Shown: positions 2,532 through 59,621, numbered from the stretch's first letter. The stretch is 64,000 bases of DNA from Candidatus Daviesbacteria bacterium (GCA_016187035.1 JACPKL010000008.1:35990-99989); one strand, 5' to 3'. The notes: a model not told the origin generated them from the sequence alone. Made by a program: numbers and translations.

Positions 2532-3782
2532 ATGACTATTGGTTTTGACGGGTCAAGGGCTTTTGGACAAAATAAGCAAAGCTCTTCCTGGAATGAGCAA
2601 AGCTCTTCCTGGAATGAGCAAAGCTCTTCCTGGAATGAGCAAAGCTCTTCCTGGAATAAAACAGGAACAGAAAATTATTCTTATCAGCTGTTAAAAGCAT
2701 TGGCAAAAATTGACAATAAGAATAGCTATATTGTTTATTTAAGACCTGATGTGGTTATTCCTGGTTTTTCTTCTGTCGTTCCGAACGTAGTTATGTTCGC
2801 TCGCAATGACCAGGAGGATTGGCCGGAAAATTTCCAATTTAGGGTTATTCCCTGGCCCAGGTTTTGGACCCAGGGAGGCCTAGCTTTGCAGACTTTTAAA
2901 GACAAGTTGGATGTGCTATTTATTCCTTCCCATACCTTGCCTTTAATCAGGAAAAGAGGGCTTAAGACTATGATTACAGTACATGATTTAGGATCAGAGT
3001 ATCTGCCATCAATGCACCAAATTAAGCAGCGGTTATATTTGTCTTTTATGCAAAAATACCAGCTTAAAACTGCTAGCAAGATAATTGCAGTATCAAAGGC
3101 TACCAAACTAGATCTAATTAACAAAATAGGTATCAAGTCAGATAAAATAACAGTTGTTTATGAAGGATATGATGAAAAAAGATTTAAGATTCAAGATTTA
3201 AGATTTAAGAATGATATAAAAGTTAATAGTTTGAGATACTTTTTGTTTGTAGGGACAGTACAACCAAGGAAGAATTTGGAAAGGGTAATAAGAGCTTTCT
3301 CAACTCACCTCGAAGGTGAAAAAATGCAGTTACACCTTCGAGGTGGATTGAAGCTGCTGATTGCTGGTTCCAAGGGTTGGTTATCTGATGAAATATATAA
3401 ACTCCCTAAAAAACTGGGAATAGAGGATAAAGTCAAGTTTTTAGGCTATGTGCCTGACGAAAAGCTGGCTTATCTTTATAAAGGAGCTATAGCTTTGGTT
3501 TTTCCCTCTCTTTTTGAAGGATTTGGTTTGCCTATTCTGGAAGCCCAAGCTTGTAGTTGCCCGGTGATTACCTCAAACCTCTCATCCATGCCTGAAGTGG
3601 CAGGTAAAGGAGCAATTTTAGTGAATCCGTATTCTGTAGATGATATAGTAAGGGGGATGGTACAAGTTCAAAGTTCAAAGTTCAAAGTTCAAAGTTTGAT
3701 AAAAGCAGGGCTTCAGAATGTTAAAAGATTTAGCTGGGAAAAGGCAGCGAGGGAAACATTGAAAGTGCTATCGTCATCCTGA
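2532..3782 (+). CDS. Glycosyltransferase family 4 (GT-B, GT1-type C-terminal domain)
   Basis: FPSLFEGFGLPILEAQACSCPVITSNLSSMPEVAG (E-x7-E region). N-terminus MTIGFDGSRAF is typical of GT4. Carries several in-frame repeat insertions. Confidence 0.85.
   Translation: MTIGFDGSRAFGQNKQSSSWNEQSSSWNEQSSSWNEQSSSWNKTGTENYSYQLLKALAKIDNKNSYIVYLRPDVVIPGFSSVVPNVVMFARNDQEDWPENFQFRVIPWPRFWTQGGLALQTFKDKLDVLFIPSHTLPLIRKRGLKTMITVHDLGSEYLPSMHQIKQRLYLSFMQKYQLKTASKIIAVSKATKLDLINKIGIKSDKITVVYEGYDEKRFKIQDLRFKNDIKVNSLRYFLFVGTVQPRKNLERVIRAFSTHLEGEKMQLHLRGGLKLLIAGSKGWLSDEIYKLPKKLGIEDKVKFLGYVPDEKLAYLYKGAIALVFPSLFEGFGLPILEAQACSCPVITSNLSSMPEVAGKGAILVNPYSVDDIVRGMVQVQSSKFKVQSLIKAGLQNVKRFSWEKAARETLKVLSSS
2576..2659 (+). 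repeat. Tandem repeat, 21 bp x 4 (gcaaagctcttcctggaatga)
   Basis: Three identical units and a fourth with one mismatch. Encodes (QSSSWNE)x4 near the GT4 N-terminus. Confidence 0.95.
3179..3213 (+). repeat. Heptanucleotide-period array (aagattt family), in frame in GT4
   Basis: aagattt aagattc aagattt aagattt aagaatg. Translated KRFKIQDLRFKND. Confidence 0.85.
3306..3345 (+). repeat. Perfect hairpin element (13-bp stem, 14-nt loop), in frame in GT4
   Basis: cacctcgaaggtg (3306-3318) and caccttcgaggtg (3333-3345) are exact reverse complements. Translated HLEGEKMQLHLRG. A second copy lies at 59238-59307. Confidence 0.9.
3663..3696 (+). repeat. Heptanucleotide-period array (caaagtt), in frame in GT4
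   Basis: caagtt followed by caaagtt x4. Translated VQVQSSKFKVQS. Confidence 0.9.
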
Positions 3783-3796
3783 TACGAATTTCGCAG

Positions 3797-3877
3797 TGTC
3801 ATTGCGAGGAAGGAGTCTTCGACTGACGAAGCAATCTTCCGAGCTGGGAAGATTCCTCGGATGCACTCGGAATGACA
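3797..3877. repeat. TGTCAT...ATGACA palindromic (MITE-like) element, 81 nt
   Basis: tgtcattgcgagg...ctcggaatgaca. Inner stem aatcttcc-gagctg-ggaagatt. Fills the GT4/GT26 intergenic spacer. Confidence 0.8.
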
Positions 3878-3887
3878 GAAAGGGATT

Positions 3888-4661
3888 ATGAAGAAGGATG
3901 TTCTTGGAATCAAAATTGATGATGTTAATATTAACCAAGCTGTGGAAGTAGTATTTGGGTGGTTGAAAGAGGGAGGTAGGCGCTACATTGTTACTCCTAA
4001 TCCTGAGATAGTGGTGATGGCTCAAAAAGACCAAGAACTTAAAAATATTTTGAATAATGCAGATCTGGTAATTCCTGATGGGGTTGGTTTAAAAATAGCA
4101 ACTGATATAGTTTGTAATACTCCAGGAATAGACTTAATGGAAGCATTAATAAAATTAAGCAATGGAAAAGGCTTTACAACAGCCTTTTTAGGAGGCAAAG
4201 AAGGAGTAGCAGAAAAAGCAGCTGAGTGCTTACTGCGGAAGTATCCAAACCTTAAAATCTCATTCACTGGTTCTGGTGGTGAAATAAATGAGAATGGAGA
4301 GTTAATAGGAGAAGATTTAAGATTTAAGATTTATGATTTAAGAGATAAAAACGTTCATAAATCGTTAATCGTTAATCGTAAATCTCTGCCGAAGGCAGAT
4401 CTGCTCTTTATAGGTTTTGGTCCTCCAAAACAGGAAAAATGGATTGCTAAGAATTTAAATAAACTGCCTGTGAAGATAGCTATGGTTGTAGGGGGATCAT
4501 TAGATTATTTGTCTGGCCAAGTGCCAAGAGCTCCTAAATTTATCAGAAGCTTAGGATTGGAATGGCTATTTAGGCTAATAATTCAGCCCTGGAGGATCAG
4601 AAGACAGCTTGCGTTGCTCAAATATCTTTGGTTAATTTGGACAATGGATGGTGGAAAATAG
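3888..4661 (+). CDS. WecB/TagA/CpsF-family glycosyltransferase (GT26)
   Basis: VTPNPEIVVMAQKD, IPDGVGL, FIGFGPPKQEKWI, GGSLDYLSGQVPRAPKFIRSLGLEWLFRLIIQPWRIRR. Confidence 0.85.
   Translation: MKKDVLGIKIDDVNINQAVEVVFGWLKEGGRRYIVTPNPEIVVMAQKDQELKNILNNADLVIPDGVGLKIATDIVCNTPGIDLMEALIKLSNGKGFTTAFLGGKEGVAEKAAECLLRKYPNLKISFTGSGGEINENGELIGEDLRFKIYDLRDKNVHKSLIVNRKSLPKADLLFIGFGPPKQEKWIAKNLNKLPVKIAMVVGGSLDYLSGQVPRAPKFIRSLGLEWLFRLIIQPWRIRRQLALLKYLWLIWTMDGGK
4311..4385 (+). repeat. 75-nt heptamer-based imperfect hairpin, in frame in GT26 gene
   Basis: Left arm is aagattt-type units (4312-4346). Right arm is aaatcgt/taatcgt units (4356-4385), roughly the reverse complement. This is exactly 25 codons (EDLRFKIYDLRDKNVHKSLIVNRKS). 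Confidence 0.8.
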
Positions 4662-5613: not shown

Positions 5614-6054
5614 TTATTGTAATTCTACAGTAGCACCTGCTGCTGTTAATTTGGTTTTTGCTTCTTCAGCTGTTTGTTTGTTAACATTTTCTAAAACCGG
5701 TTTTGGAGCTGCTTCTACCAAATCTTTAGCTTCTTTAAGTCCTAAAGTAGGTACTAATTCCCTGACAGCTTTAATTACGGCTATTTTATTAGCTCCTGCT
5801 TGAGAAAGGACCACATTAAAGGTTGTTTTCTCCTCTTGCGGCTCACCTGCTGCTTGCCCTGAGTTTGTCGAAGGGGCTACTGCCACAGGCGCTTGAGCTG
5901 ATACACCAAACTTATCTTCCAGAGTATGGACTAAATCTGCCAGTTCTAGAACTGATAATTTCTCAATAGTAGCAATTATTCCTTCTAAGTTTTTACTAAC
6001 TGGTTTCTTTTCAGAAGACTTAGATTTCTGATCTTGTGTATTATCCATGTTCAT
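5614..6054 (-). CDS. rplL: 50S ribosomal protein L7/L12 with about 20-aa K/S-rich N-terminal extension
   Basis: [26 protein letters not shown]...[31 protein letters not shown]...ATVELQ. Confidence 0.9.
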
Positions 6055-6055
6055 T

Positions 6056-6147
6056 TGTCATTCTGAACGAAGTGAAGAATCTCTAGACTTGTTCTAAATA
6101 CATCTGAAATGAATTCAGAGATCCTTCGCTAATCGCTCAGGATGACG
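6056..6147. repeat. TGTCAT...ATGACG palindromic (MITE-like) element, 92 nt
   Basis: Left arm tgtcattctgaacgaagtgaagaatctct. Right arm agagatccttcgctaatcgctcaggatgacg. Fills the rplJ-rplL spacer and overlaps the last codons and stop of rplJ. Confidence 0.85.
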
Positions 6148-6679
6148 CTTGCGTGTCACCCCCCTTCATCTTTTGAATTTCTGAAAGTGCATATACTAAA
6201 TTTCTTAAGTTAGCTTGCAACACTCCCACAATTCCTTGCAAAGGAGCAACTAATACTCCTACTGTTTTAGCTCTTAGCTCCGGTTTTGAAGGAAGGGTGG
6301 AAAGTTGGATAATCTTTGCTTCATCCAGGCTGTCTTTACCTAAAAATCCTGATTTTACTTTACCTAAGCTGGCATCTTTTAATATTTTAACTAATATTTT
6401 AATAGGGGAGATCTCATCATCATAAGCAAAAAGTGCGGCAGTAGGACCTTCTAGATTGGAAGTTGGAAGTTGGAGGCTAGAAGCTGGAAGGGCACGCTCT
6501 AAAAGAGTATTCTTAGTAATACTAAATTCTGCAGATTGTTCCCTGAGTTTATTTCTTAGATCAGAGAGTTGCTTCATGGTCAGACCTTTGTAGTCTGTAA
6601 AAACCACTGCTTTAGCTTTAGCTAATTTTTCCTGTAATTTAATAACCAAATCTTGCTTTTGTTGTCTTGTTTTAGCCAT
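6137..6679 (-). CDS. rplJ: 50S ribosomal protein L10
   Basis: MAKTRQQKQDLVIKLQEKLAKAKAVVFTDYKGLTMKQLSDLRNKLRE. I place the start at ATG 6679. The 33 upstream codons of the track ORF look like non-coding leader. Confidence 0.85.
   Translation of the reverse strand: MAKTRQQKQDLVIKLQEKLAKAKAVVFTDYKGLTMKQLSDLRNKLREQSAEFSITKNTLLERALPASSLQLPTSNLEGPTAALFAYDDEISPIKILVKILKDASLGKVKSGFLGKDSLDEAKIIQLSTLPSKPELRAKTVGVLVAPLQGIVGVLQANLRNLVYALSEIQKMKGGDTQASS
6456..6490. repeat. Heptanucleotide-period array (ttggaag family), in frame in rplJ
   Basis: ttggaag ttggaag ttggagg ctagaag ctggaag on + strand. Read on the minus strand as PASSLQLPTSN. Confidence 0.8.
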
Positions 6680-6752
6680 ATTTGCCTTGGTTGGATTTAT
6701 GCTTCGACTGGTTCGACTACGCTCACCACCAGTCCGCTCAGCACCAACTGTC

Positions 6753-7832
6753 TTAAGCTGAATTATTATTATAACCAATTAACCACCAGAAAGCAAGCAG
6801 GTTAACCACACTTAAAGGATTAAACAGCATAGCAGTCATCAGCCCTAACAAAGCAGTTGTTTCCAGCAGTTTTTTATGCTGGATAAAGCGCTGAAAAGCT
6901 AAATATATCAGTAAAGATATTGAAACAACCCCTACCAGTCCTCCCTGGATCCAAAAATCCAGTAAAAAATTATGGGCACTGTCTACTATCTGATATTGAA
7001 CATTATTATTTAGAGAAACTGCCTCTTTGTGGATTATCTTTTGAATACTGCCAAATCCATGCCCAATAAAAGGAGATTTAAGACCTGCCATCAAAGCTGT
7101 CTGCCAAATTTCAGCACGGTTTTCAAACAGTCTTGGGGTGGCTGCAACAGGTAAGGTCAGACTAAGCATCATTAGTAAAATGCATATTATTGTTGCTTTA
7201 AGAGTTGAGGTTTTGACTCTGATGAGAATAATAAATACTACCTCAATTATTAGACCAATTAATCCAGCCCTGGAGCCTGATAATAAGATCAAAGTGCAGG
7301 TGGCAACCAGTGTCAGAAAACGTATTAATCTTCTGCAATGAGACCAGGTAAAAGGGAAGATAAACAAGGCAGTGGCAGCCAGGGCGTTTGGTTCACCCAG
7401 TGTGCCAAAAGCCCGTCCCTCAAAACTTCCTAAAATTACTGTTCCCATAAAAAGAAAAAGTAAAGACAATTGATACAGAAATTTAGGTATTTGATCTAGT
7501 TGGATATTTTTGGTCATTAGGGAGAAAAGTAATAAAGACATAAACAAAAATTGCCCCTGCAATCTAAAAGCATTACCAAAAAAAGCTCCAGCGCTCTTAA
7601 AAAGCAAGCTGGTATCCAAACTTAAAATAAACAAAATGCCTACAAAAATAATTTGAGGATTGATGAATTGTTTAAGCTGAGGTTTTTTAAAATTAATTAT
7701 TTTTAGGAAAAGCAGGGTATTAATAACTGCCTCTGTTAGAATCACCTTAGGAGTTTCAAAAGGGGAAATGCCGATGGGAATAACTACCAGGGGTAAAAAG
7801 AATAATAAAAAGACAACAAGGTATGCAGCCAC
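6753..7832 (-). CDS. O-antigen ligase / Wzy-like polytopic membrane protein
   Basis: About 10 TM segments. LGEPNALAATALFIFPF and LLSGSRAGLIGLII are typical of the O-antigen ligase family. Confidence 0.65.
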   Translation of the reverse strand: MAAYLVVFLLFFLPLVVIPIGISPFETPKVILTEAVINTLLFLKIINFKKPQLKQFINPQIIFVGILFILSLDTSLLFKSAGAFFGNAFRLQGQFLFMSLLLFSLMTKNIQLDQIPKFLYQLSLLFLFMGTVILGSFEGRAFGTLGEPNALAATALFIFPFTWSHCRRLIRFLTLVATCTLILLSGSRAGLIGLIIEVVFIILIRVKTSTLKATIICILLMMLSLTLPVAATPRLFENRAEIWQTALMAGLKSPFIGHGFGSIQKIIHKEAVSLNNNVQYQIVDSAHNFLLDFWIQGGLVGVVSISLLIYLAFQRFIQHKKLLETTALLGLMTAMLFNPLSVVNLLAFWWLIGYNNNSA

Positions 7833-14351: not shown

Positions 14352-14420
14352 AGATTTAAGATTTAGGAATTAAGATTCAAGATTTTTATTCTTAAATCAT
14401 AAATCTTATCTCTTAAATCT
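14352..14420. repeat. aagattt-family imperfect hairpin in the nusG-rplK spacer
   Basis: agatttaaga (14352-14361) is the exact reverse complement of tcttaaatct (14411-14420). The interior is made of aagattt-like units and their complements. Confidence 0.8.
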
Positions 14421-37212: not shown

Positions 37213-37272
37213 TTTTCAATCATTGAATCATTGAACACTCATTGTAAATTGTAAATTGTAAATTGTAAATTG
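37213..37272. repeat. Dispersed repeat copy 2 plus gtaaatt heptamer array (x4)
   Basis: aatcattgaatcattgaacactcattg followed by gtaaatt x4 (37244-37271). Lies in the divergent spacer between the M50 gene and rpmB. Confidence 0.85.
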
Positions 37273-37504: not shown

Positions 37505-38405
37505 GAGGAAAATCAGGGTAGCCGTTTAAGAAGTCTTTGAAGGATATTGGTTTTTTCCCCTCCATTTGCAATAAATGTTCATCCTTCCTGTCATTCTGAG
37601 CGATTAGCGAAGAATCTTCCATGGATCGGGAAGATTCCTCACTCTGTTTTGGATAACGTATGGGTGGCAAAAATTTAATAATTTTGTTATTCCATTTTGT
37701 CCATACCCCTGGCCAGGGATAATAAGCGCGGATCTCTCTGTCTAATTTTTCAGGTTGGGGAGGATTATTAATATTAAAATAACCATCTTCTTTAACAAAG
37801 TGTTTAGTGTAAGTAGCCTTGGAATGATCTTGGGGGGTAGGATTAATTGATCCTTCCAAGTATTGTTTTATTACCTTTAAAATTAGTTGTCCTCCTAGTT
37901 CATTTAGCTTAGTCAATAAAGTATCTCTAGTTTCTTTGGGAGTCAGTATATATTCCTGTTGGGCTAGTATATCTCCGCTATCTACCTCATCAGTTATTTG
38001 AATGATAGTAACTCCTGAAATCTTGTCTCCATTAAGAATAGCAGTAGGAGCAGGGGAAGGACCTCTATATTTGGGTAAAAGTGAATGATGGATATTTAAT
38101 GGAGCATATTTTGGTAAGGTTAGCAAGTCTTTAGACAGGATTAATCCATAATCTTCCACTACCAAAAAATCACTCTTCAGCTTGGCAATTTTATTTATTA
38201 CTTCCTTGTCTAATTTACTTGTTTCCAAAGTTGGAATATTTAATTCACTGGCTAATTTTTTAACAGGACTATCAGGAATTGTGATAACTAACGATACAGG
38301 AAAGATTGAATAGACAATCTTTAATCCAATAATTGAGTACTTTGTATTCCCAAAAAAAACTAGTTTAAGTTTTGAGTTTTGATTTGAAGTTTTAACATTT
38401 GACAT
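37473..38405 (-). CDS. fmt: Methionyl-tRNA formyltransferase
   Basis: VFFGNT..., NIHHSLLPKYRGPSPAPTAIL, C-terminal LQMEGKKPISFKDFLNGY. Position is downstream of def. Confidence 0.85.
   Translation of the reverse strand: MSNVKTSNQNSKLKLVFFGNTKYSIIGLKIVYSIFPVSLVITIPDSPVKKLASELNIPTLETSKLDKEVINKIAKLKSDFLVVEDYGLILSKDLLTLPKYAPLNIHHSLLPKYRGPSPAPTAILNGDKISGVTIIQITDEVDSGDILAQQEYILTPKETRDTLLTKLNELGGQLILKVIKQYLEGSINPTPQDHSKATYTKHFVKEDGYFNINNPPQPEKLDREIRAYYPWPGVWTKWNNKIIKFLPPIRYPKQSEESSRSMEDSSLIAQNDRKDEHLLQMEGKKPISFKDFLNGYPDFPLKQLLRTRLF
37589..37646. repeat. TGTCAT-type palindromic element, in frame in the fmt C-terminal domain
   Basis: tgtcattctgagcgattagcgaagaatcttcc-atggatc-gggaagattcctcactctg. The arm nearly matches the reverse complement of the right arm of the 6056-6147 element. 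Translated (minus) as about QSEESSRSMEDSSLIAQNDRK. Confidence 0.8.
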
Positions 38406-38422
38406 TTGAGTTTTGAGTTAAA
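38367..38422. repeat. Heptanucleotide-period array, 8 units, spanning fmt codons 1-13, the fmt/def spacer and the def stop
   Basis: aagtttt gagtttt gatttga agtttta acatttg acatttg agttttg agttaaa. The sense strand of fmt reads MSNVKTSNQNSKLK. Confidence 0.85.
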
Positions 38423-39367: not shown

Positions 39368-41403
39368 GGACTTCCTGATTTTGTTGCCTCTTTTAATTGT
39401 TCTAATGCTTCCAGATAATCTGGTTTTAAGTTTAAGGTAGTTTTTAGATTTTCAATTTCTTCATCCTTTTTACCGATACTTTCTAAAATTAAAGCCTTAT
39501 TATAATAAAGCTTAGGATCAGTTGGGGCCAGCTTGATAGCCATATCTAAAGCTTCCAAAGTTTTGTTAACATACTTTTTATCTAAACTAGCTAATTCATA
39601 ATATGTCCTAATAGCTGTTCTCCAAAAAGAAACGTTTTTAGGGCTAATTGTTAAACTGATTTTTAATTGATTTAAAGCCTCATCTTCTAAAGCAGCAGAA
39701 AGAGAAGCGTCAGTTTCTTTTAAAGCAGCAGCAGCCGCAGCTGCAGAATAGCTAAGTTCAGAACGGTAGAACGGCTCTCCTTTATTTAAGTCAGAAGCCA
39801 TGCTTAATAAATTATATGCTTTGCCAGGATTACCTAAATCTGAGGCTTTTTGACCTTGATTGAACAGTGTATCAGCATACCAAAGCTGGAAGATAGAATA
39901 TAGAAGATAGAGGGTGGAAAAAATCACAATCCCTTTAGCTATATTAGTATAAATTTTCCGACGGTAGATGATAGAAAATAGATGATGGAATTTTGAAGCT
40001 GGAAGATGGAAGGTAGAAATAGAATCAGTAGCAACAAAAACCAAAGCAGGAAAAAGGTAAAAAAAGACAGCTATGATAACTACTGAGAATAGGAAGAAGT
40101 TATAGATAAGATAGGAGATATATGAGGCAAGAATACTATAAAGTAGCAGATTTTTGGTTCCTTTGCGTTTTAGTATAAGCGAAGCTTGATACTTCGTATT
40201 AACAATTATAAATTTTATAAAAATTATAATAATTATCAAATAAGTTCCAAATCCTACAATGCCTGTGGTAGCTAGATAATTCAAATACTCATTATGGGCT
40301 TTATTGTATAAAAAATCCCACTCAGAGGTTAAGTTATGCTCCTTTGGCCTGAATTGATAATATGAATAAGCAAATGTCTCCACTCCTGAGCCAAACAAGG
40401 GATAATGTTTAAAAATATCCAGGGCTCCATGCCAGACAATAAACCTGATTTGTCCTGATTCTGTGCCGCCATTTTCCAGTTGTGTACCTACAGAAGGATT
40501 GGAAGGTAAGCTGATGGTAGGTCTTGCTGGAGCAGCAAATTTAGAGACTAACCTGAAAGAGGTTAAAGCAGACCCAAAAAGAACATTAATAACCAGAAAA
40601 CTTAATATTACTATAAGTAATGATTTCAACTTAACTATATTTACGATTCCACCCTTAGGGTGGAGCCTTAGAATATAGAGACCGATAAGAGTGATAAATC
40701 CAACTATTAGGCCTAATGTTGGACCTCTTGAGTAGGTAAAGGTAAAAGCCAGGTAATAAATAACAAGTAGTAAGTAGTAAGTAGTAAGTAGTAAGGGGGA
40801 AGGAGCAGATAAGAAGAAATACAGGGCAGGGAAGATCAACATGGCAAGGTAGGCTGCCATCCAGTTTGGCTGGCCTAAGGTGGCAAAAACTCTTTCATAA
40901 ACTTTTTGCACCCAGCAGTCAGCATTAAATTCTCCTCTTAAAATTACACAGGAAGGTGATACCTGAAAGTGTTCTAAAATTCCCCAGACAGCAATAATCA
41001 GACCTGAAGCTAAGCCTATTTTTAAAAGGGGCTTAATTTTATCTGCTGTAACATTAGATACAAAGGCCCAGTAAAGCAAAAGATAACAGATTATGGATAA
41101 GAGGCCTCCATTGGAGCGTGAATAATAACCCCAGATAGAAGTATGAAGGTCTATTGAGAAAATAGTTGATAAAATATTAGCCCCTAAAAACAGCAGTAAT
41201 GGAATGTCCAAGGGTGTACGATTTAAGATTAAAGATTTATGATTTATGATTTTAAGAAGCCAACTCCCTACTATAACTACAGTCAATCCATAAGTTAAAA
41301 TCATCTTGTTATATTCAAAAAGCTCATAATTTAAAGAGGTCCAAAAAAGAGGAGTTAGAAAAAAGAGAGTATAAAAAGAATAGGAAATAATTTTATCAAG
41401 CAT
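39364..41403 (-). CDS. O-antigen-ligase-like polytopic membrane protein with C-terminal TPR repeats
   Basis: YSRGPTLGLIVGFITL (Wzy_C-like) and NEYLNYLATTGIVG. The C-terminal 150 aa are TPR-like (AYNLLSMASDLNKGEPFY..., YYNKALILESIGKKDEEI). Confidence 0.65.
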   Translation of the reverse strand: MLDKIISYSFYTLFFLTPLFWTSLNYELFEYNKMILTYGLTVVIVGSWLLKIINHKSLILNRTPLDIPLLLFLGANILSTIFSIDLHTSIWGYYSRSNGGLLSIICYLLLYWAFVSNVTADKIKPLLKIGLASGLIIAVWGILEHFQVSPSCVILRGEFNADCWVQKVYERVFATLGQPNWMAAYLAMLIFPALYFFLSAPSPLLLTTYYLLLVIYYLAFTFTYSRGPTLGLIVGFITLIGLYILRLHPKGGIVNIVKLKSLLIVILSFLVINVLFGSALTSFRLVSKFAAPARPTISLPSNPSVGTQLENGGTESGQIRFIVWHGALDIFKHYPLFGSGVETFAYSYYQFRPKEHNLTSEWDFLYNKAHNEYLNYLATTGIVGFGTYLIIIIIFIKFIIVNTKYQASLILKRKGTKNLLLYSILASYISYLIYNFFLFSVVIIAVFFYLFPALVFVATDSISTFHLPASKFHHLFSIIYRRKIYTNIAKGIVIFSTLYLLYSIFQLWYADTLFNQGQKASDLGNPGKAYNLLSMASDLNKGEPFYRSELSYSAAAAAAALKETDASLSAALEDEALNQLKISLTISPKNVSFWRTAIRTYYELASLDKKYVNKTLEALDMAIKLAPTDPKLYYNKALILESIGKKDEEIENLKTTLNLKPDYLEALEQLKEATKSGSP
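39884..40025. repeat. gatagaag/ggaagat-family repeat blocks, in frame in a TM region
   Basis: agctggaagatagaatatagaagatagagggtgg (39884-39917) and ggtagatgatagaaaatagatgatgg...ggaagatggaaggtagaaatagaat (39963-40025). The antisense strand is read as FSTLYLLYSIFQLW / DSISTFHLPASKFHHLFSIIY. Confidence 0.75.
40767..40794. repeat. Heptanucleotide array gtagtaa x4, in frame in a TM region
   Basis: Four exact gtagtaa units, read on the minus strand as LLLTTYYLL. Confidence 0.9.
41221..41255. repeat. aagattt-family heptamer array, in frame
   Basis: atttaag attaaag atttatg atttatg attttaa, read on the minus strand as LKIINHKSLILN. Confidence 0.85.
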
Positions 41404-43942: not shown

Positions 43943-45013
43943 ATGCTACATACTCCTTTTTATGATCCAAGTAAAAGTTATGAAGAAAATTATGATAAGG
44001 GGCCATATGGTGCATTTGCAGATGGGCAAGTTTACCAACAGATTAACAAACCAACTTATGACTTTCTAGGTCAAAAAGTGTATTTGCCTTTTGGTATTCC
44101 GGCAGGACCGCTTTTGAATTCTAACTTTTGTAAGAGCGCTTTTGAAAAGGGGTTTGATATTTGTGTTTATAAAACTGTCAGGGCAGAAAGTTTTCCCTGC
44201 CATCCATTTCCAAATATTTTGGCTGTAAAAATTGAAGGTGATTTAACCGCTGTAAAAGCCCGGAGTAAACTGACTGCTGATAATGAATACTGCGAACCTT
44301 TAAGTATTACCAACTCTTTTGGGGTACCTTCTAAAGAGCCTTCTGTTTGGCAGGAAGATGTTAAAAAGGCTATCAGATATGCAGGAAAAGGCCAATGTTT
44401 AGTTTTAAGCTTTATGGGTACTGTTAAACAAAACCAGACAGCAGATGAATTTGTGGCAGATTTTGCTAAAGCTGCCAAGAAGGCCAAAGAAACAGGGGCA
44501 AAAATATTAGAAGCTAACTTATCCTGTCCAAATATTGGGAATGAGGGGCTGGTTTGTTATAACCTGGAAATGACTCAGAAGGTTTGTGAGGCTCTCAGGA
44601 GAGAAATTGGTAATACCCCTTTAATATTAAAAGTAGGTTACTTTCAAAATAATGAAGACTTAAACAAACTGGTTGAGGTTGCTTCAAAATATGCCCAAGG
44701 CATTGCTGCTATTAATACTGTTTCAGCTGAGGTGGTGGATAAAGCAGGTAATCAGGTTTTACCTGGAAAGAACAGGCTCAGATCAGGAGTATGTGGGACT
44801 GCTATTAAATGGGCAGGTTTGGATATGGTGAGAAAACTTAAATTCAAAATTCAAAATTCAAAATTCAAAATTCAAATTATAGGGGTAGGGGGAGTGATGA
44901 AGCAAGAGGATTATTTTGAATATATTGAAGCCGGGGCAGACTGTGTGATGAGTGCCACCGGAGCCATGTGGAACCCTTATTTGGCCCAGGAGATTAAAAA
45001 GATATTACGTTAG
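43943..45013 (+). CDS. pyrD: Dihydroorotate dehydrogenase-like (class 1) flavoenzyme
   Basis: FGIPAGP, LEANLSCPNIGNEG, IIGVGGV...GADCVMSATG. Confidence 0.7.
   Translation: MLHTPFYDPSKSYEENYDKGPYGAFADGQVYQQINKPTYDFLGQKVYLPFGIPAGPLLNSNFCKSAFEKGFDICVYKTVRAESFPCHPFPNILAVKIEGDLTAVKARSKLTADNEYCEPLSITNSFGVPSKEPSVWQEDVKKAIRYAGKGQCLVLSFMGTVKQNQTADEFVADFAKAAKKAKETGAKILEANLSCPNIGNEGLVCYNLEMTQKVCEALRREIGNTPLILKVGYFQNNEDLNKLVEVASKYAQGIAAINTVSAEVVDKAGNQVLPGKNRLRSGVCGTAIKWAGLDMVRKLKFKIQNSKFKIQIIGVGGVMKQEDYFEYIEAGADCVMSATGAMWNPYLAQEIKKILR
44837..44878 (+). repeat. Heptanucleotide array tcaaaat, six units = 42 nt = 14 codons, in frame in pyrD-like gene
   Basis: cttaaat tcaaaat tcaaaat tcaaaat tcaaaat tcaaatt. 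Translated LKFKIQNSKFKIQI. Confidence 0.95.
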
Positions 45014-54787: not shown

Positions 54788-56815
54788 ATGCAGAATTTAG
54801 TTGTAGTGGAAAGCCCTACGAAGGCCCGCACGCTACAGAAATTTCTTGGAGATAAATATCAAATCGAAGCTTCAATGGGACATATTAGGGATTTGCCAAA
54901 GTCTGACTTTGGGGTAGATATTCTTCATGATTTTGAGCCACAATATGTTATCCCTCGCGATAAAAGGAAGAAAGCATTTGAGTTAAAAAGAATAGCTAAT
55001 AAGGCTCAGACTTTATATTTGGCAACAGATCCTGATCGGGAAGGTGAGGCTATAGCCTGGCATATAGCAGAGTTGCTACGCAATTCTGAACTCAAAACTC
55101 AAAACTCAAAAGTGAAAAGTGAAAACATAAGACGTGTGGTTTTTCATGAAATCACAGAAGAGGCTATTAAAGAAGCATTTAAGCATCCTAGAGAACTAAA
55201 CATGCAGCTGGTTGATGCCCAGCAAGCCAGAAGAGTATTGGACAGGCTGGTTGGTTATAAACTGTCTCCTTTGCTTTGGCAAAAAGTTAGAAAAGGTTTA
55301 TCAGCAGGAAGGGTGCAGTCTGTAGCTTTAAGGTTAATTGCAGAAAGGGAAAGGGAGATCCAGGCATTTAAAGCAGTGGAGTATTGGGTTATTGAAGCAG
55401 AGCTGCAGGCAGAAAAGGGGATGTTTTTAGCCACCTTAATTGAATTAAATGATAAAAAATTAGAAATTAAAAATGAGCAGGAAGCTAAAACCCATGTATC
55501 CAATTTAGAAAAAGCAAATTACATTGTAGAAAAGGTTATTCAAAGGCAGGTCCGCCGTTACCCTTATCCTCCATTTACCACTTCTACCTTGCAGCAAACT
55601 GCAGCCAATAGACTTGGTATGTCAGCAAAAAAAACCATGATGTTAGCCCAAGCTTTATATGAAAGAGGATTAATTACTTATATGAGGACAGATTCTGTTA
55701 ATTTATCCGTTCAGGCAGTTGGGTCTGTTAGATTATATATTGAAAATTATATTGGTAAGTCTTACATACCAAATACTCCCAGGATTTTTAAATCTAAATC
55801 CAAAAACGCCCAGGAAGCCCATGAGGCGATACGTCCTACGGACGTCAAATTCGAAATTCGAAATGTTTCGCAACGCAAAACTGTCCTCGGCAGAGCGAAA
55901 TTCGAAAATTCTTTAAATAGGGATCATTTAAGGCTTTATGATTTGATTTGGAAAAGGTTTGTAGCCTGCCAGATGAGTGAGGCATTAATTGATCAGACTA
56001 CGGTTGATGTAAAAGCAGCTGAATATTTACTGAGAGCCACAGGCAGTGTGATTAAATTTGAAGGTTGGCTTAAGTTATATGAAAAAGATTTAGAAGATAA
56101 AGAGGAAAAGAAACAAGTATTACCAAACTTATCAGAAGATCAGAACCTTAATTTAAATAAACTTTTACCTACACAGCATTTTACAGAGCCTCCTCCAAGG
56201 TTTAATGAGGCTTCTTTAATAAAAAAATTAGAGGAACTTGGTATTGGCAGGCCTTCCACCTATGCACCTATTTTATCTACTATCCAGGAAAGGTTTTATG
56301 TTGAGAAAATGGAGCGGAAATTTGTCCCAACCGCCTTAGGGTTTGCTGTAATTGATTTTTTACTAAAATATTTTCCGGATGTTTTCGACTATTCTTTTAC
56401 TGCCCGGATGGAAAATGAGCTGGACGATATTTCAAGAGGGGAGAGACAGTGGAAACCAACTATAAGAGAGTTTTATGGGCCTTTTGAGAAAAAATTAGAA
56501 GAAGTAGTAAAAACAGCAGAAAAAGTTAAAATGGAAGTTACTTTAGCCGGTAAAAAATGTCCAAAGTGTGATAAGGATTTAATAATCAGAATAGGCAGGT
56601 TTGGCAAGTTTTTAGCATGCTCGTCTTTTCCTGAGTGTAAGCATACAGAAAGCTTGGAAGAAAAGGTTAATGTCAGATGCCCGACAGACGCAGGAGAGGT
56701 TGTTATTAGAAAAACCAGGCGCGGTAAAACTTTTTATGGCTGCAAAAACTGGCCTGGTTGTAAGTTTGCCTCTTGGACCAAGCCAAAAAGCCCGTCAGTT
56801 GACACTAAAGCCTAA
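54788..56815 (+). CDS. topA: DNA topoisomerase I
   Basis: VVVESPTKA, DPDREGEAIAWH, YMRTDS, EAHEAIRPT. C-terminal Cys4 zinc ribbons (CPKCDK...CSSFPEC). Confidence 0.95.
   Translation: MQNLVVVESPTKARTLQKFLGDKYQIEASMGHIRDLPKSDFGVDILHDFEPQYVIPRDKRKKAFELKRIANKAQTLYLATDPDREGEAIAWHIAELLRNSELKTQNSKVKSENIRRVVFHEITEEAIKEAFKHPRELNMQLVDAQQARRVLDRLVGYKLSPLLWQKVRKGLSAGRVQSVALRLIAEREREIQAFKAVEYWVIEAELQAEKGMFLATLIELNDKKLEIKNEQEAKTHVSNLEKANYIVEKVIQRQVRRYPYPPFTTSTLQQTAANRLGMSAKKTMMLAQALYERGLITYMRTDSVNLSVQAVGSVRLYIENYIGKSYIPNTPRIFKSKSKNAQEAHEAIRPTDVKFEIRNVSQRKTVLGRAKFENSLNRDHLRLYDLIWKRFVACQMSEALIDQTTVDVKAAEYLLRATGSVIKFEGWLKLYEKDLEDKEEKKQVLPNLSEDQNLNLNKLLPTQHFTEPPPRFNEASLIKKLEELGIGRPSTYAPILSTIQERFYVEKMERKFVPTALGFAVIDFLLKYFPDVFDYSFTARMENELDDISRGERQWKPTIREFYGPFEKKLEEVVKTAEKVKMEVTLAGKKCPKCDKDLIIRIGRFGKFLACSSFPECKHTESLEEKVNVRCPTDAGEVVIRKTRRGKTFYGCKNWPGCKFASWTKPKSPSVDTKA
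55085..55126 (+). repeat. Heptanucleotide array tcaaaac/tgaaaag, six units = 42 nt = 14 codons, in frame in topA
   Basis: tctgaac tcaaaac tcaaaac tcaaaag tgaaaag tgaaaac. Translated SELKTQNSKVKSEN. Confidence 0.95.
55844..55912 (+). repeat. 69-nt cgaaatt-type repeat block, in frame in topA directly after EAHEAIRPT
   Basis: cgaaattcgaaa at 55852-63 and 55896-907 brackets tgtttcgcaacgcaaaactgtcctcggcagag. Translated VKFEIRNVSQRKTVLGRAKFENS (23 codons). Confidence 0.8.
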
Positions 56816-58522: not shown

Positions 58523-58904
58523 TTCCTTCTATTTTTGATACTATTAAGATATGCAAAAAGGATATACTCGAATTCTTATCTTCTTTGTAACCATTTTATT
58601 ATTGAGTAGTTTTGTGTATATTAAAAAAGAATGGTAAGGTTATTGTCCTTATCTATCCTGGCAGATGGGGTACTGAAGGACCAACATATACAGAAAAAGA
58701 ACCTTTATATATTAGATGAAGTTATCTGTGATCGAGTAGCTTCCACGATAAGATTTACTTCTAAAGAAAAGACATGATGTTAAAAGAATCCAAAGGTCTT
58801 TGCATGGAGTATCTGAATCTTAAAAAGAAAAAAGAAGCCATTTATTGCTTGCTATTCAGAAAATGGGCTAGAAATTATCCATTGATCTGTTATTATTAGT
58901 GCTG

Positions 58905-59621
58905 ATGGATAAAGGATTGCTAATTGTTATAGATGGAATTGATGGGGCTGGCAAGACTACCCAAGTTGAGCTTTTAAAACAGTCTTTAGCCTCGCAAGGT
59001 CGGATTTGGGAGGCTATCAGTTTCCCAAGGTATGAGGATAATTTGTATGGCAAATTAATTAAAAGATATTTGGAAGGGGAATTTGGGAATATAAATGAAG
59101 TTAATCCATATTTGATGGCTCCTATCTTTGCTGGAGATAGGATCTTAGCAAAGCCTCTGATAGAAGTTTGGTTGAGTACTGGGAAATTAGTTATTGCTAA
59201 CAGATATGTTTCTGCCAGTAAAGCCCATCTTGGAGCTCACCTCGAAGTCTTCGACCCTGAGGCTCAGACCCGAAGGGGTGAAAAAATGCGATTACACCTT
59301 CGAGGTGTGCATTATCAAAGAGAAAACTTTATGAGATGGTTAGATAAGTTAGAATATGAAACTAATGGATTACCTAAACCAGATTTAACAATTCTCTTGG
59401 ATGTTGATCCAAAGGTAGGACAACATAATGTCCAGGATAAAAATGTTAAAGATATCCATGAAGATAGTATTAAACACTTGGAAGAGGCAGCTAAAATTTA
59501 TCTGGAGCTTGCCCAAGCTGAGCCAAATTGGCAGGTTGTAAACTGCATGATTTCTGATAAGATGAGAAGCAAAGAAGATATCCATAAAGAAATAACTGCC
59601 CTAATTGATAGATTAGTATGA
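58905..59621 (+). CDS. tmk: Thymidylate kinase
   Basis: LIVIDGIDGAGKTTQ (P-loop), NRYVSAS, PDLTILLDVDP. ATG 58905 is preferred over the track's GTG 58899. Confidence 0.85.
   Translation: MDKGLLIVIDGIDGAGKTTQVELLKQSLASQGRIWEAISFPRYEDNLYGKLIKRYLEGEFGNINEVNPYLMAPIFAGDRILAKPLIEVWLSTGKLVIANRYVSASKAHLGAHLEVFDPEAQTRRGEKMRLHLRGVHYQRENFMRWLDKLEYETNGLPKPDLTILLDVDPKVGQHNVQDKNVKDIHEDSIKHLEEAAKIYLELAQAEPNWQVVNCMISDKMRSKEDIHKEITALIDRLV
59238..59307 (+). repeat. Second copy of the 13-bp-stem hairpin element, carrying a nested 30-nt insertion, in frame in tmk
   Basis: cacctcgaag [tcttcgaccctgaggctcagacccgaaggg] gtgaaaaaatgcgattacaccttcgaggtg. Translated HLEVFDPEAQTRRGEKMRLHLRG. Confidence 0.9.

Follow-up and report, generated by a model that had tools for sequence, protein, structure and literature searches.

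The stretch of DNA considered here (the window; 64,000 nt, GCA_016187035.1 JACPKL010000008.1:35990-99989) comes from a metagenome-assembled genome (MAG) of Candidatus Daviesbacteria, a member of the candidate phyla radiation (CPR). Within its tmk gene, which encodes dTMP kinase, lies a GC-rich composite of 70 nt (59238-59307) that equals a hairpin element found at 3306-3345, in a GT4 glycosyltransferase gene, plus exactly 30 nt, in frame. We denote the 30-nt stretch U1. The open reading frame (ORF) of tmk, the parts of the composite and the short reference hairpin are as follows.

58899..59621, plus strand: tmk (dTMP kinase) ORF, 240 aa from GTG, from the ORF listing; host of the nested insertion
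59238..59247, plus strand: hairpin left arm, first 10 nt, CACCTCGAAG, as in the GT4 copy; complementary to 59298-59307
59248..59277, plus strand: U1, the 30-nt nested unit, TCTTCGACCCTGAGGCTCAGACCCGAAGGG; missing from the GT4 copy; reads VFDPEAQTRR
59247-59276, plus strand: U1 in its family form, GTCTTCGACCCTGAGGCTCAGACCCGAAGG (GTCTT...GAAGG); an equal fit, with 1-nt junction ambiguity
59278..59280, plus strand: hairpin left arm, last 3 nt, GTG; the 13-nt arm is complete once the 30 nt are taken out
59281..59294, plus strand: hairpin loop, AAAAAATGCGATTA; same as the loop of metagenome locus L201, 2 bases off the GT4 loop
59295..59307, plus strand: hairpin right arm, CACCTTCGAGGTG; a match to the arm 13-mer
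3306..3345, plus strand: short reference hairpin inside the GT4 glycosyltransferase ORF 2532-3782; reads HLEGEKMQLHLRG

The tmk product is a 100% match to the Candidatus Daviesbacteria protein HYW41_03265 and carries Pfam domain PF02223; the 238-aa model of that protein would fit a start at ATG 58905. Tmk homologues (n = 847) are mostly 210-225 aa long, and the whole composite stretch is missing in about 60 Tmk orthologues. On removal of the 30 nt, the tmk copy becomes a perfect hairpin with a 13-bp stem and a 14-nt loop. Both window copies of the hairpin have the same orientation and the same frame, reading HLEGEKM[Q/R]LHLRG inside their ORFs. A first-pass annotation of the window had described an extra 30 nt, or 10 codons, at 59248-59277 relative to the GT4 copy; this is borne out, with a junction ambiguous by 1 nt, and the observation of the extra stretch is confirmed. 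The ctgag-g-ctcag that it reported within the insert is present, as is the repeat it saw, with cgaag just before the insert and cgaagg at its end. The net gain is 30 nt adjoining a G, and any target duplication is at most 1 nt. The nested reading proposed in that annotation, a 30-nt unit inside a hairpin inside tmk, is supported by evidence from outside the window.

The hairpin element and its short copies

The hairpin element measures 40 nt: its 13-bp arms (CACCTCGAAGGTG/CACCTTCGAGGTG) enclose an A-rich 14-nt loop. Its arm 13-mer has three matches in the window against 0.02 expected, and the GT4 copy folds at -24 kcal/mol (z = -6). Metagenome sequences were scanned for the two arms at a distance of 17-47 nt, so that short and U1-filled forms were both detectable. 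Among the resulting 79 loci, 18 belong to the same hairpin family (family A; 40-41 nt, loop A[A/G]AAAATGC..TA), and U1 is present in none of these 18 copies, though the scan pattern permitted the filled form. Two-thirds of them (12/18) lie within long ORFs, for a SpoU methylase, YchF, a RadA-like ATPase, GT4, and Wzy_C-domain, ATP-grasp and pilin-like proteins. The element is dispersed in low-GC, CPR-like genomes, often within housekeeping genes, and the short hairpin is, judging from these copies, its common or base form.

Orthologous sites are available for both window copies. In the GT4 orthologue P0127, from another species (59% aa identity by BLASTP), the short hairpin stands at the same codon and has an inverted loop (L206, 2335-2374). 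Compared with the window GT4 gene, its arms are identical at 26/26 positions and its flanks at only 63-70%, and the two genes share the codon at only 45% of conserved residues. In P0122, both arms have changed complementarily (CACCTCCGAGGTG/CACCTCGGAGGTG) around a 23-nt loop, and P0130 retains a single arm-like CACCTGCAAGGTG at the orthologous site. For tmk, the orthologue P0003 (L209) has a single arm-like CACCTTCCAGGTG at the codon position of the hairpin, and P0003 and the window Tmk alone among the orthologues have an extra 'HY' in common; P0002 and about 58 further Tmk orthologues read ANLPExQRE at the site. Single arm-like 13-mers (CACCTNNNAGGTG) thus stand at the orthologous sites of P0130 (GT4) and P0003 (tmk); the orthologous sites compared lie in loci L206, L207, L209 and L210. 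A site filled by the hairpin exceeds a single-arm site by 27 nt, or 9 codons. We read the single arms as probable deletion footprints between CACCT direct repeats, the alternative being a pre-existing arm-like target, and we read the hairpin as probably older than U1 at the tmk site.

Other forms of the hairpin were also seen. A 41-nt subfamily (L128, L149, L196, L203) is extended on both sides, by AATC to the left and by T[AG]A to the right, to a total of 48 nt or 16 codons, and was found in this extended form in SpoU, RadA-like and pilin-like genes. In 'family B' hairpins, mostly from metagenome Ga0213870, arms CACCTCGAAGG...CACCTTCGAGGTG surround many different inner hairpins (L135, L136, L147, L151, L154-L157 and others), the inner stems varying between copies (cgagg/cctcg, ccccg/cgggg, cgaagg/ccttcg). 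Because the same arms enclose different inner hairpins, nested content is common in this hairpin. The GT4 orthologues span 337-461 aa, and their loop bounded by RxIxAF and LVIAGSKGW is a hot spot for insertions; in P0123 and P0190 this loop carries peptides like VIARSETTKQSS...RVARND that look like translated TGTCAT elements.

U1 in other genomes and in other palindromes

U1 was searched for by exact matches to its 21-nt core, CGACCCTGAGGCTCAGACCCG, in GTDB species-representative genomes and IMG/VR viral contigs. The core is found in at least 120 loci of about 70 MAG assemblies among the GTDB species representatives, and in 6 IMG/VR viral contigs. The independent copies that the first-pass annotation had asked for therefore exist, in at least 126 places in other genomes, with the same ends and unrelated flanks, and none in the window. 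At each of these loci, the conserved block starts with GTCTT and ends with GAAGG(G) and the flanks differ from locus to locus; at least 114 copies are identical across all 30 nt. The hairpin arm is present in 0/126 listed U1 loci. By record title, the carriers among the matches listed fall into about ten phylum-level groups. Planctomycetota form the majority, often with several loci per genome, and further carriers are Zixibacteria, Ignavibacteria, Deltaproteobacteria/Thermodesulfobacteriota, Methylomirabilota, Acidobacteriota, Verrucomicrobia, and Alpha- and Gammaproteobacteria. The CPR carriers among these matches are seven assemblies: Daviesbacteria, Microgenomates, three Curtissbacteria and two 'Patescibacteria group'. 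The GC content of U1 loci ranges from 0.39 to 0.71, with CPR loci at about 40% and Planctomycetota above 60%.

Most U1 copies among the matches listed are embedded in another palindromic repeat. At many loci the two flanks are mutually complementary but differ in sequence from one locus to another (L018, L019, L024, L058 and others), as in cctgcctgccg[U1]gcaggcagg, gcaggct[U1]..agcctgc and gtgggct[U1]..agcccac. For 103 distinct sites, we removed the 30 nt, folded the host sequence and scored the position of the junction against controls. The junction fell inside the predicted apical loop at 49% of host sites compared with 30% of controls (p = 2e-4), and at most 3 nt from the apical loop at 73% compared with 52% (p = 7e-5). 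An empty palindrome, CCTGCCTGCCGGCAGGCAGG, and its filled form co-occur in one MAG assembly. Three CPR sites have a known or inferable empty form, and the gain at each is exactly 30 nt, adjoining a G. At the Daviesbacteria locus L026, U1 breaks a TGTCAT-type repeat, cgctcag[U1]gatgac, which stands uninterrupted in the window at 6119-6146 (cgctcaggatgac); in L016, it breaks a CCTTCGACAGGCTCAGGG-type repeat between CCTTCGACAG and GCTCAGGG.

A sister unit of 24 nt, GGCTCGACTGAGCTCGCCGAAGTC, denoted U2, occurs alone in L007, L080 and L114, and also in 9 viral contigs (L211-L219). In Planctomycetota the two units nest reciprocally at fixed points, U1 in U2 at ggctcgact/gagctc and U2 in U1 at gaggctc/agaccc (slash, junction), the latter arrangement being found in L025, L054 and L064. 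Together, these comparisons show U1 to be independent of the hairpin, with fixed ends and a preference for host palindromes.

Within the window, no second U1 was found even at 8 mismatches, BLAST-short giving only 8-11-mers, and on the evidence of the window alone a 'unit' would be unproven. The family that the first-pass annotation had perceived there dissolves on counting: the recurrence of gtcttcgac actually lies at 3815-3823 and is one of 5 matches at up to one mismatch where 3.6 are expected, and the 'cttcgac-type' sequences (3814, 36192) are at chance level, with 6 occurrences of CTTCGAC against 4.9 expected. A degenerate-pattern search for U1 paralogues in viral contigs returned the same six matches only. 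Covariance-model searches of 8 loci gave no Rfam match to U1 with E <= 1, and in the window only three tRNAs reach the gathering score. Among the matches listed, U1 copies are single and dispersed, the sole close pair (L023, 78 nt apart) being a tandem duplication of a composite; the regularly spaced array with unique spacers that marks CRISPR repeats is not formed by U1.

U1 has a 5-nt direct repeat, GACCC...GACCC (positions 7-11 and 21-25). In a paralogous unit in L029 and L105, both repeat copies shift together to GAGCC...GAGCC, a change that is not base-pairing covariation. We also considered U1 as an older composite, an outer hairpin GTCTTCGACCCGAAGG with an inner palindrome and a GACCC duplication, and rejected it, as the outer-only form is missing from 1.4 Mb of loci. 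A viral contig of 5.8 kb (L003) carries three U1 copies (888-917, 1823-1852, 3629-3658), of which two show 1-2 nt of divergence. Every copy is followed, about 25 nt downstream, by a T-run, AGGAG and ATG, a terminator-like or regulatory context. The planctomycetal locus L025, with U1/U2, also has clustered sub-threshold Acido-Lenti-1 matches (scoring 28-33 bits, where the gathering score is 37) at 5979-6032, 6640-6694, 7389-7441 and elsewhere, which may be another repeat family. Weak Acido-Lenti-1 and miRNA-like Rfam matches were discarded as an identity for U1, being generic hairpins located elsewhere.

The window contains other repeats as well. TGTCAT-type inverted repeats (GTCATT[CG][TC]GA...AATGAC) lie in intergenic spacers at 3797-3879, 6056-6146 and 37590-37650. 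The L7/L12 hinge of rplL (minus strand, 5614-6054) has at 5840-5890 a GC-rich CCTTCGACAAACTCAGGGC-type stretch, and the related repeat CCTTCGACAGGCTCAGGG is the one that hosts U1 in L016. About 14 period-7 tandem arrays (AAGATTT, AAGTTCA, TTGGAAG, ATTGTAA, AAATTCA, AACTCAA and others), several of them within ORFs, resemble the short tandemly repeated repetitive (STRR) heptamers of heterocystous cyanobacteria. The GT4 gene itself has two heptamer arrays and an array of four 21-nt repeats that reads QSSSWNE; 2571-2657 also belongs to this set of arrays. The period-7 arrays are located as follows.

3179-3210, 3664-3696, 4312-4343, 4360-4384, 6456-6490, 14352-14385: period-7 arrays
37241-37272, 38364-38419, 40765-40795, 41220-41257, 44840-44876, 55089-55126: period-7 arrays

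Reading frame and position in Tmk

U1 is always 30 nt long and U2 is 24 nt, and the frame is therefore kept by construction. The claim that two successive insertions had each preserved the frame of an essential kinase thus holds as far as the frame goes, and loses its coincidence of two events, since the unit is always 10 codons. Both elements lie within ORFs having Pfam domains on either side. In other genomes, U1 is in frame in MnmG (Pirellulales), a Lyase_1 enzyme (Microgenomates), a KH/R3H protein and a UvrD-like helicase (both Curtissbacteria), and an Aas-like fusion protein. VFDPEAQTRR and HLEGEKMRLHLRG are the predicted peptides of translated elements. Four of the six frames of U1 are open, which by our own estimate is what chance gives for a 63%-GC 30-mer; this is no evidence of selection for open frames, an idea we dropped. 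For low-GC loci, 5/25 U1 copies lie within long ORFs, and the coding density of such compact genomes is, by our estimate, typically far above this share. The low share is consistent with palindromes between genes being preferred, with purifying selection, or with both.

An AlphaFold model of Tmk has a predicted local distance difference test (pLDDT) score of 84 overall, with the lowest confidence (51-59) at the inserted residues, about 116-138. The 23 extra residues are modelled as a low-confidence loop between predicted helices 104-112 and 135-155. Alignment with the thymidylate kinase (TMPK) of Mycobacterium tuberculosis splits at the same place, into query residues 7-115 and 145-206, and the unaligned 116-144, which includes the insert, stands opposite 8 residues of that enzyme, 109-116; solved TMPK structures match Tmk on both sides of the insert. 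From the alignment break and the model, the insert would therefore be a loop extension after the NRY...AHLGA segment and not part of the LID. The LID itself we place, by analogy with other TMPKs, at a second low-confidence block, 181-190. A 23-aa insert in a loop near the LID had been suggested: the low-confidence loop is there, and its position, opposite M. tuberculosis TMPK residues 109-116, is not that of the LID, so that the model and the alignment rule out an insert in the LID. In the model, the extra residues form a predicted disordered loop that is remote from P-loop, NRY motif and LID alike.

Origin of the nested insertion and its alternatives

Our preferred explanation, to which we assign a probability of roughly 0.78, is that the tmk composite holds two layers of tiny non-coding repeats, a CPR-type hairpin and then U1, spliced into its left arm by trans-acting copying. 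At tmk, the hairpin would have come first, with U1 entering afterwards; we infer that U1 was inserted in place, as opposed to a hairpin that arrived with the unit already in it. Having no room for a gene of its own, U1 would be copied by a factor acting in trans. Such a factor would probably recognise a folded target, a hairpin or cruciform, and join the unit at the apex or no more than about 3 nt away from it. Candidate routes are a single-strand HUH enzyme or one like the tyrosine transposases (RAYTs) associated with repetitive extragenic palindromic sequences (REPs), an RNA- or oligonucleotide-templated process, and microhomology-guided template switching. Phages would be likely vehicles between phyla, and genic copies would persist only where 10 stop-free extra codons fall in a tolerant surface loop.

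Several results weigh against this explanation. A search within 8 kb of the U1 copies at the 126 loci found neither an enriched protein family nor a mobilising gene. The orientation of U1 relative to local GC skew is unbiased (68 versus 63), which gives no support for an IS200/IS605-like mode confined to the lagging strand. On its own, U1 forms a weak hairpin (-4.8 kcal/mol as DNA, z = -0.7); its enrichment at apices is only moderate because the control baseline is high, and in tmk its place is in the left arm of the hairpin, 3 nt in, and not at the apex. The 64-kb window holds a single copy, every carrier is a MAG or metagenome contig, and U1 has no match in PLSDB plasmids or GenBank phage records. 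The 6-nt CGAAGG identity between the target and the unit end at the tmk junction would fit a homology-guided, enzyme-free route equally.

Such a route is the main rival mechanism. It dispenses with dedicated mobility and invokes homology- or microhomology-guided copying, by template switching at stalled forks or extruded hairpins or by gene conversion, with phage-brought DNA as template. Besides the identity at the tmk junction (CGAAG/G), AGG is common to the three CPR sites with known empty forms, the search around U1 copies found no linked enzyme gene, and copies do occur in phage-like contigs. Quasi-palindrome template switching is known to produce co-varying complementary arms, and the arms of P0122 are changed yet perfectly complementary. 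However, the left junction lacks consistent homology and the hosts are very diverse; the constant ends in more than 120 contexts and the fixed-point nesting of U1 and U2 look like site-defined cutting and joining, and near-identity across phyla would be hard to keep without a sequence-specific step. We consider this route improbable as a full account, though the strongest of the competitors.

Less probable still is that unit and hairpin are selected, functional cis-elements (a terminator, an RNA-stability hairpin or a protein-binding site), of which the tmk copy is a by-product; mobility would be compatible with such a role. The setting of the three L003 copies ahead of T-run, AGGAG and ATG suggests this, as do the arms that stay identical at 26/26 positions between GT4 orthologues whose flanks have diverged to 63-70%, and the minus strand of the tmk composite, which folds better than the plus strand (-31 versus -24 kcal/mol). 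By contrast, tmk has no T-run, there is no Rfam match, copies stand in many unrelated coding regions in both orientations, and function leaves the precise 30-nt nested gain and the empty/filled pairs unexplained.

The reverse order of events, in which the long form is ancestral and GT4 and the other short copies are deletion derivatives, is very unlikely. The CGAAG before the unit and the CGAAGG at its end do form a short direct repeat able to mediate deletion, but a deletion with the CGAAG repeats as its endpoints would take out 28 nt, two G too many would stay behind, and the observed short form would not result. The first-pass annotation had named this order as the case that would overturn its own; we reject it, as P0127 and all 18 metagenome copies are short in a scan that allowed the unit, and the same 30 nt with the same ends recur in more than 120 unrelated contexts without the hairpin arm. 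A 5-nt CGAAG target duplication fails in the same way, by 2 nt, since the empty site would then have to contain two more G. An assembly or binning artefact, such as a chimeric join through a shared repeat, is equally remote: all carriers are MAGs, and U1 occurs in MAGs of the NC_groundwater series (L014, L026, L055, L092, L115), but both parts of one hairpin arm and a continuous stop-free tmk frame flank the insert, which a chimeric join would not restore, tmk sits on a 183-kb contig, and elsewhere U1 is in frame within single genes and in carriers that include records titled chromosomes and contigs above 1 Mb.

The layered-repeat explanation has precedents of several kinds. The small dispersed repeats (SDRs) SDR1-8 of heterocyst-forming cyanobacteria, credited to Elhai et al. 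in 2008, reportedly nest in their own copies and are often embedded in heptamer tandem repeats. Like them, the units here are non-coding, dispersed, tens of nt long, precisely inserted in palindromes and nested, and the window too has period-7 arrays; the nesting takes the form of U1 in U2 and U2 in U1 at fixed points, with empty host palindromes in the same assembly. PMC5861425 gives SDRs 21-27 nt and reports none in HIP1-rich cyanobacteria outside the Nostocaceae; together with PMC4390886, it places SDR5 between bases 3 and 4 of the HIP1 (highly iterated palindrome 1) palindrome. U2, with 24 nt, is within this range, whereas U1, with 30 nt, is above it. Unlike SDRs, U1 occurs in Planctomycetota, CPR, Deltaproteobacteria and phage contigs, nearly invariant, and in frame in essential genes. 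The descriptions of SDR1-8 set U1 apart from them, with no known sequence relation.

Rickettsia palindromic elements (RPEs), attributed to Ogata et al. in 2000, are said to lie in frame in protein genes, housekeeping genes included, as a tolerated surface peptide. They measure about 100-150 bp, are confined to Rickettsia and do not have nesting as a hallmark. The elements described here likewise add an in-frame peptide, in tmk, GT4, mnmG, uvrD-like, lyase, YchF, SpoU and RadA-like genes; unlike RPEs, they are units of 24-40 nt, stacked and shared across phyla, and the host here is a Daviesbacterium. RPEs are also mentioned in PMC1779305. REPs, including bacterial interspersed mosaic elements (BIMEs) and REP doublets forming hairpins (REPINs), are imperfect palindromes of 20-40 nt, multicopy and non-autonomous, moved in trans by RAYTs (Y1 HUH enzymes); they form mosaics, serve as targets for other insertions and, in the species studied, are extragenic, each family having its own RAYT (PMC3116915). 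The units found here are also short, palindromic, multicopy and targets for further insertions. Unlike REPs, U1 lies in genes as well as spacers and is identical across phyla. Cognate RAYT genes typically have REPs on their flanks; near the U1 copies at the 126 listed loci, no RAYT was seen. REPs carry a conserved 5' tetranucleotide of the GTAG type next to the imperfect palindrome; U1 starts with GTCT and the hairpin with CACC, and neither has a GTAG head.

Yeast mitochondrial GC clusters, with an optional in-frame one in var1, and the 'byp' elements of Magnusiomyces are short GC-rich palindromes in AT-rich compact genomes; ribosomes skip byps, whose lengths are free of any frame constraint. 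PMC2670323 adds palindromic repeats in Volvox organelle DNA. As in these organelles, short GC-rich palindromic units have here invaded AT-rich compact genomes, coding regions included; in contrast to the organellar elements, their lengths (30 nt for U1, 24 nt for U2) are multiples of three and the frame is open, and there is no sequence relation. Transposable elements of the miniature inverted-repeat type (MITEs) have terminal inverted repeats and a target-site duplication, are 50-500 bp long and derive from insertion sequences. Unlike a MITE insertion, the gain here is exactly 30 nt, the junction is ambiguous by no more than 1 nt, and there is no 5-nt duplication. Unlike an intrinsic terminator, the tmk site is inside an ORF with no T-run after it, a terminator-like setting being found only in viral contig L003. 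Membership of the SDRs, RPEs, REP/RAYT systems, MITEs, terminators or CRISPR fails on defining features; by analogy, SDRs (in behaviour) and RPEs (in their effect on genes) appear to be the closest precedents.

The searched literature had nothing on these sequences, by sequence or by concept, and within it the almost invariant, cross-phylum 30-nt unit nested in palindromes and genes is new. A bolder proposal, which we regard as possible at somewhat less than even odds, is that U1, U2 and perhaps the CPR hairpin belong to an undescribed cross-phylum, phage-carried system of ultra-small modules written almost without error into DNA hairpin apices by trans-acting machinery, possibly RNA- or oligonucleotide-templated. 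If true, no smaller mobile element is known to be horizontally transferred, and the modules would be a general source of loop insertions, 8-16 residues long, in the essential proteins of uncultured bacteria.

If 30 nt are copied unchanged into hairpins from CPR to Planctomycetota and phages, then some widely shared or transferred activity recognises U1, and naming it would extend the known modes of DNA mobility by a new one at the smallest sizes. The elements can produce spurious 'hypothetical' peptides and make homology annotation and structure prediction harder. Their insertions lengthen loops of essential enzymes (Tmk, MnmG, YchF, RadA-like) and account for some of the differences in length between CPR orthologues, as in GT4, and the elements are natural markers of recent events in unculturable organisms.

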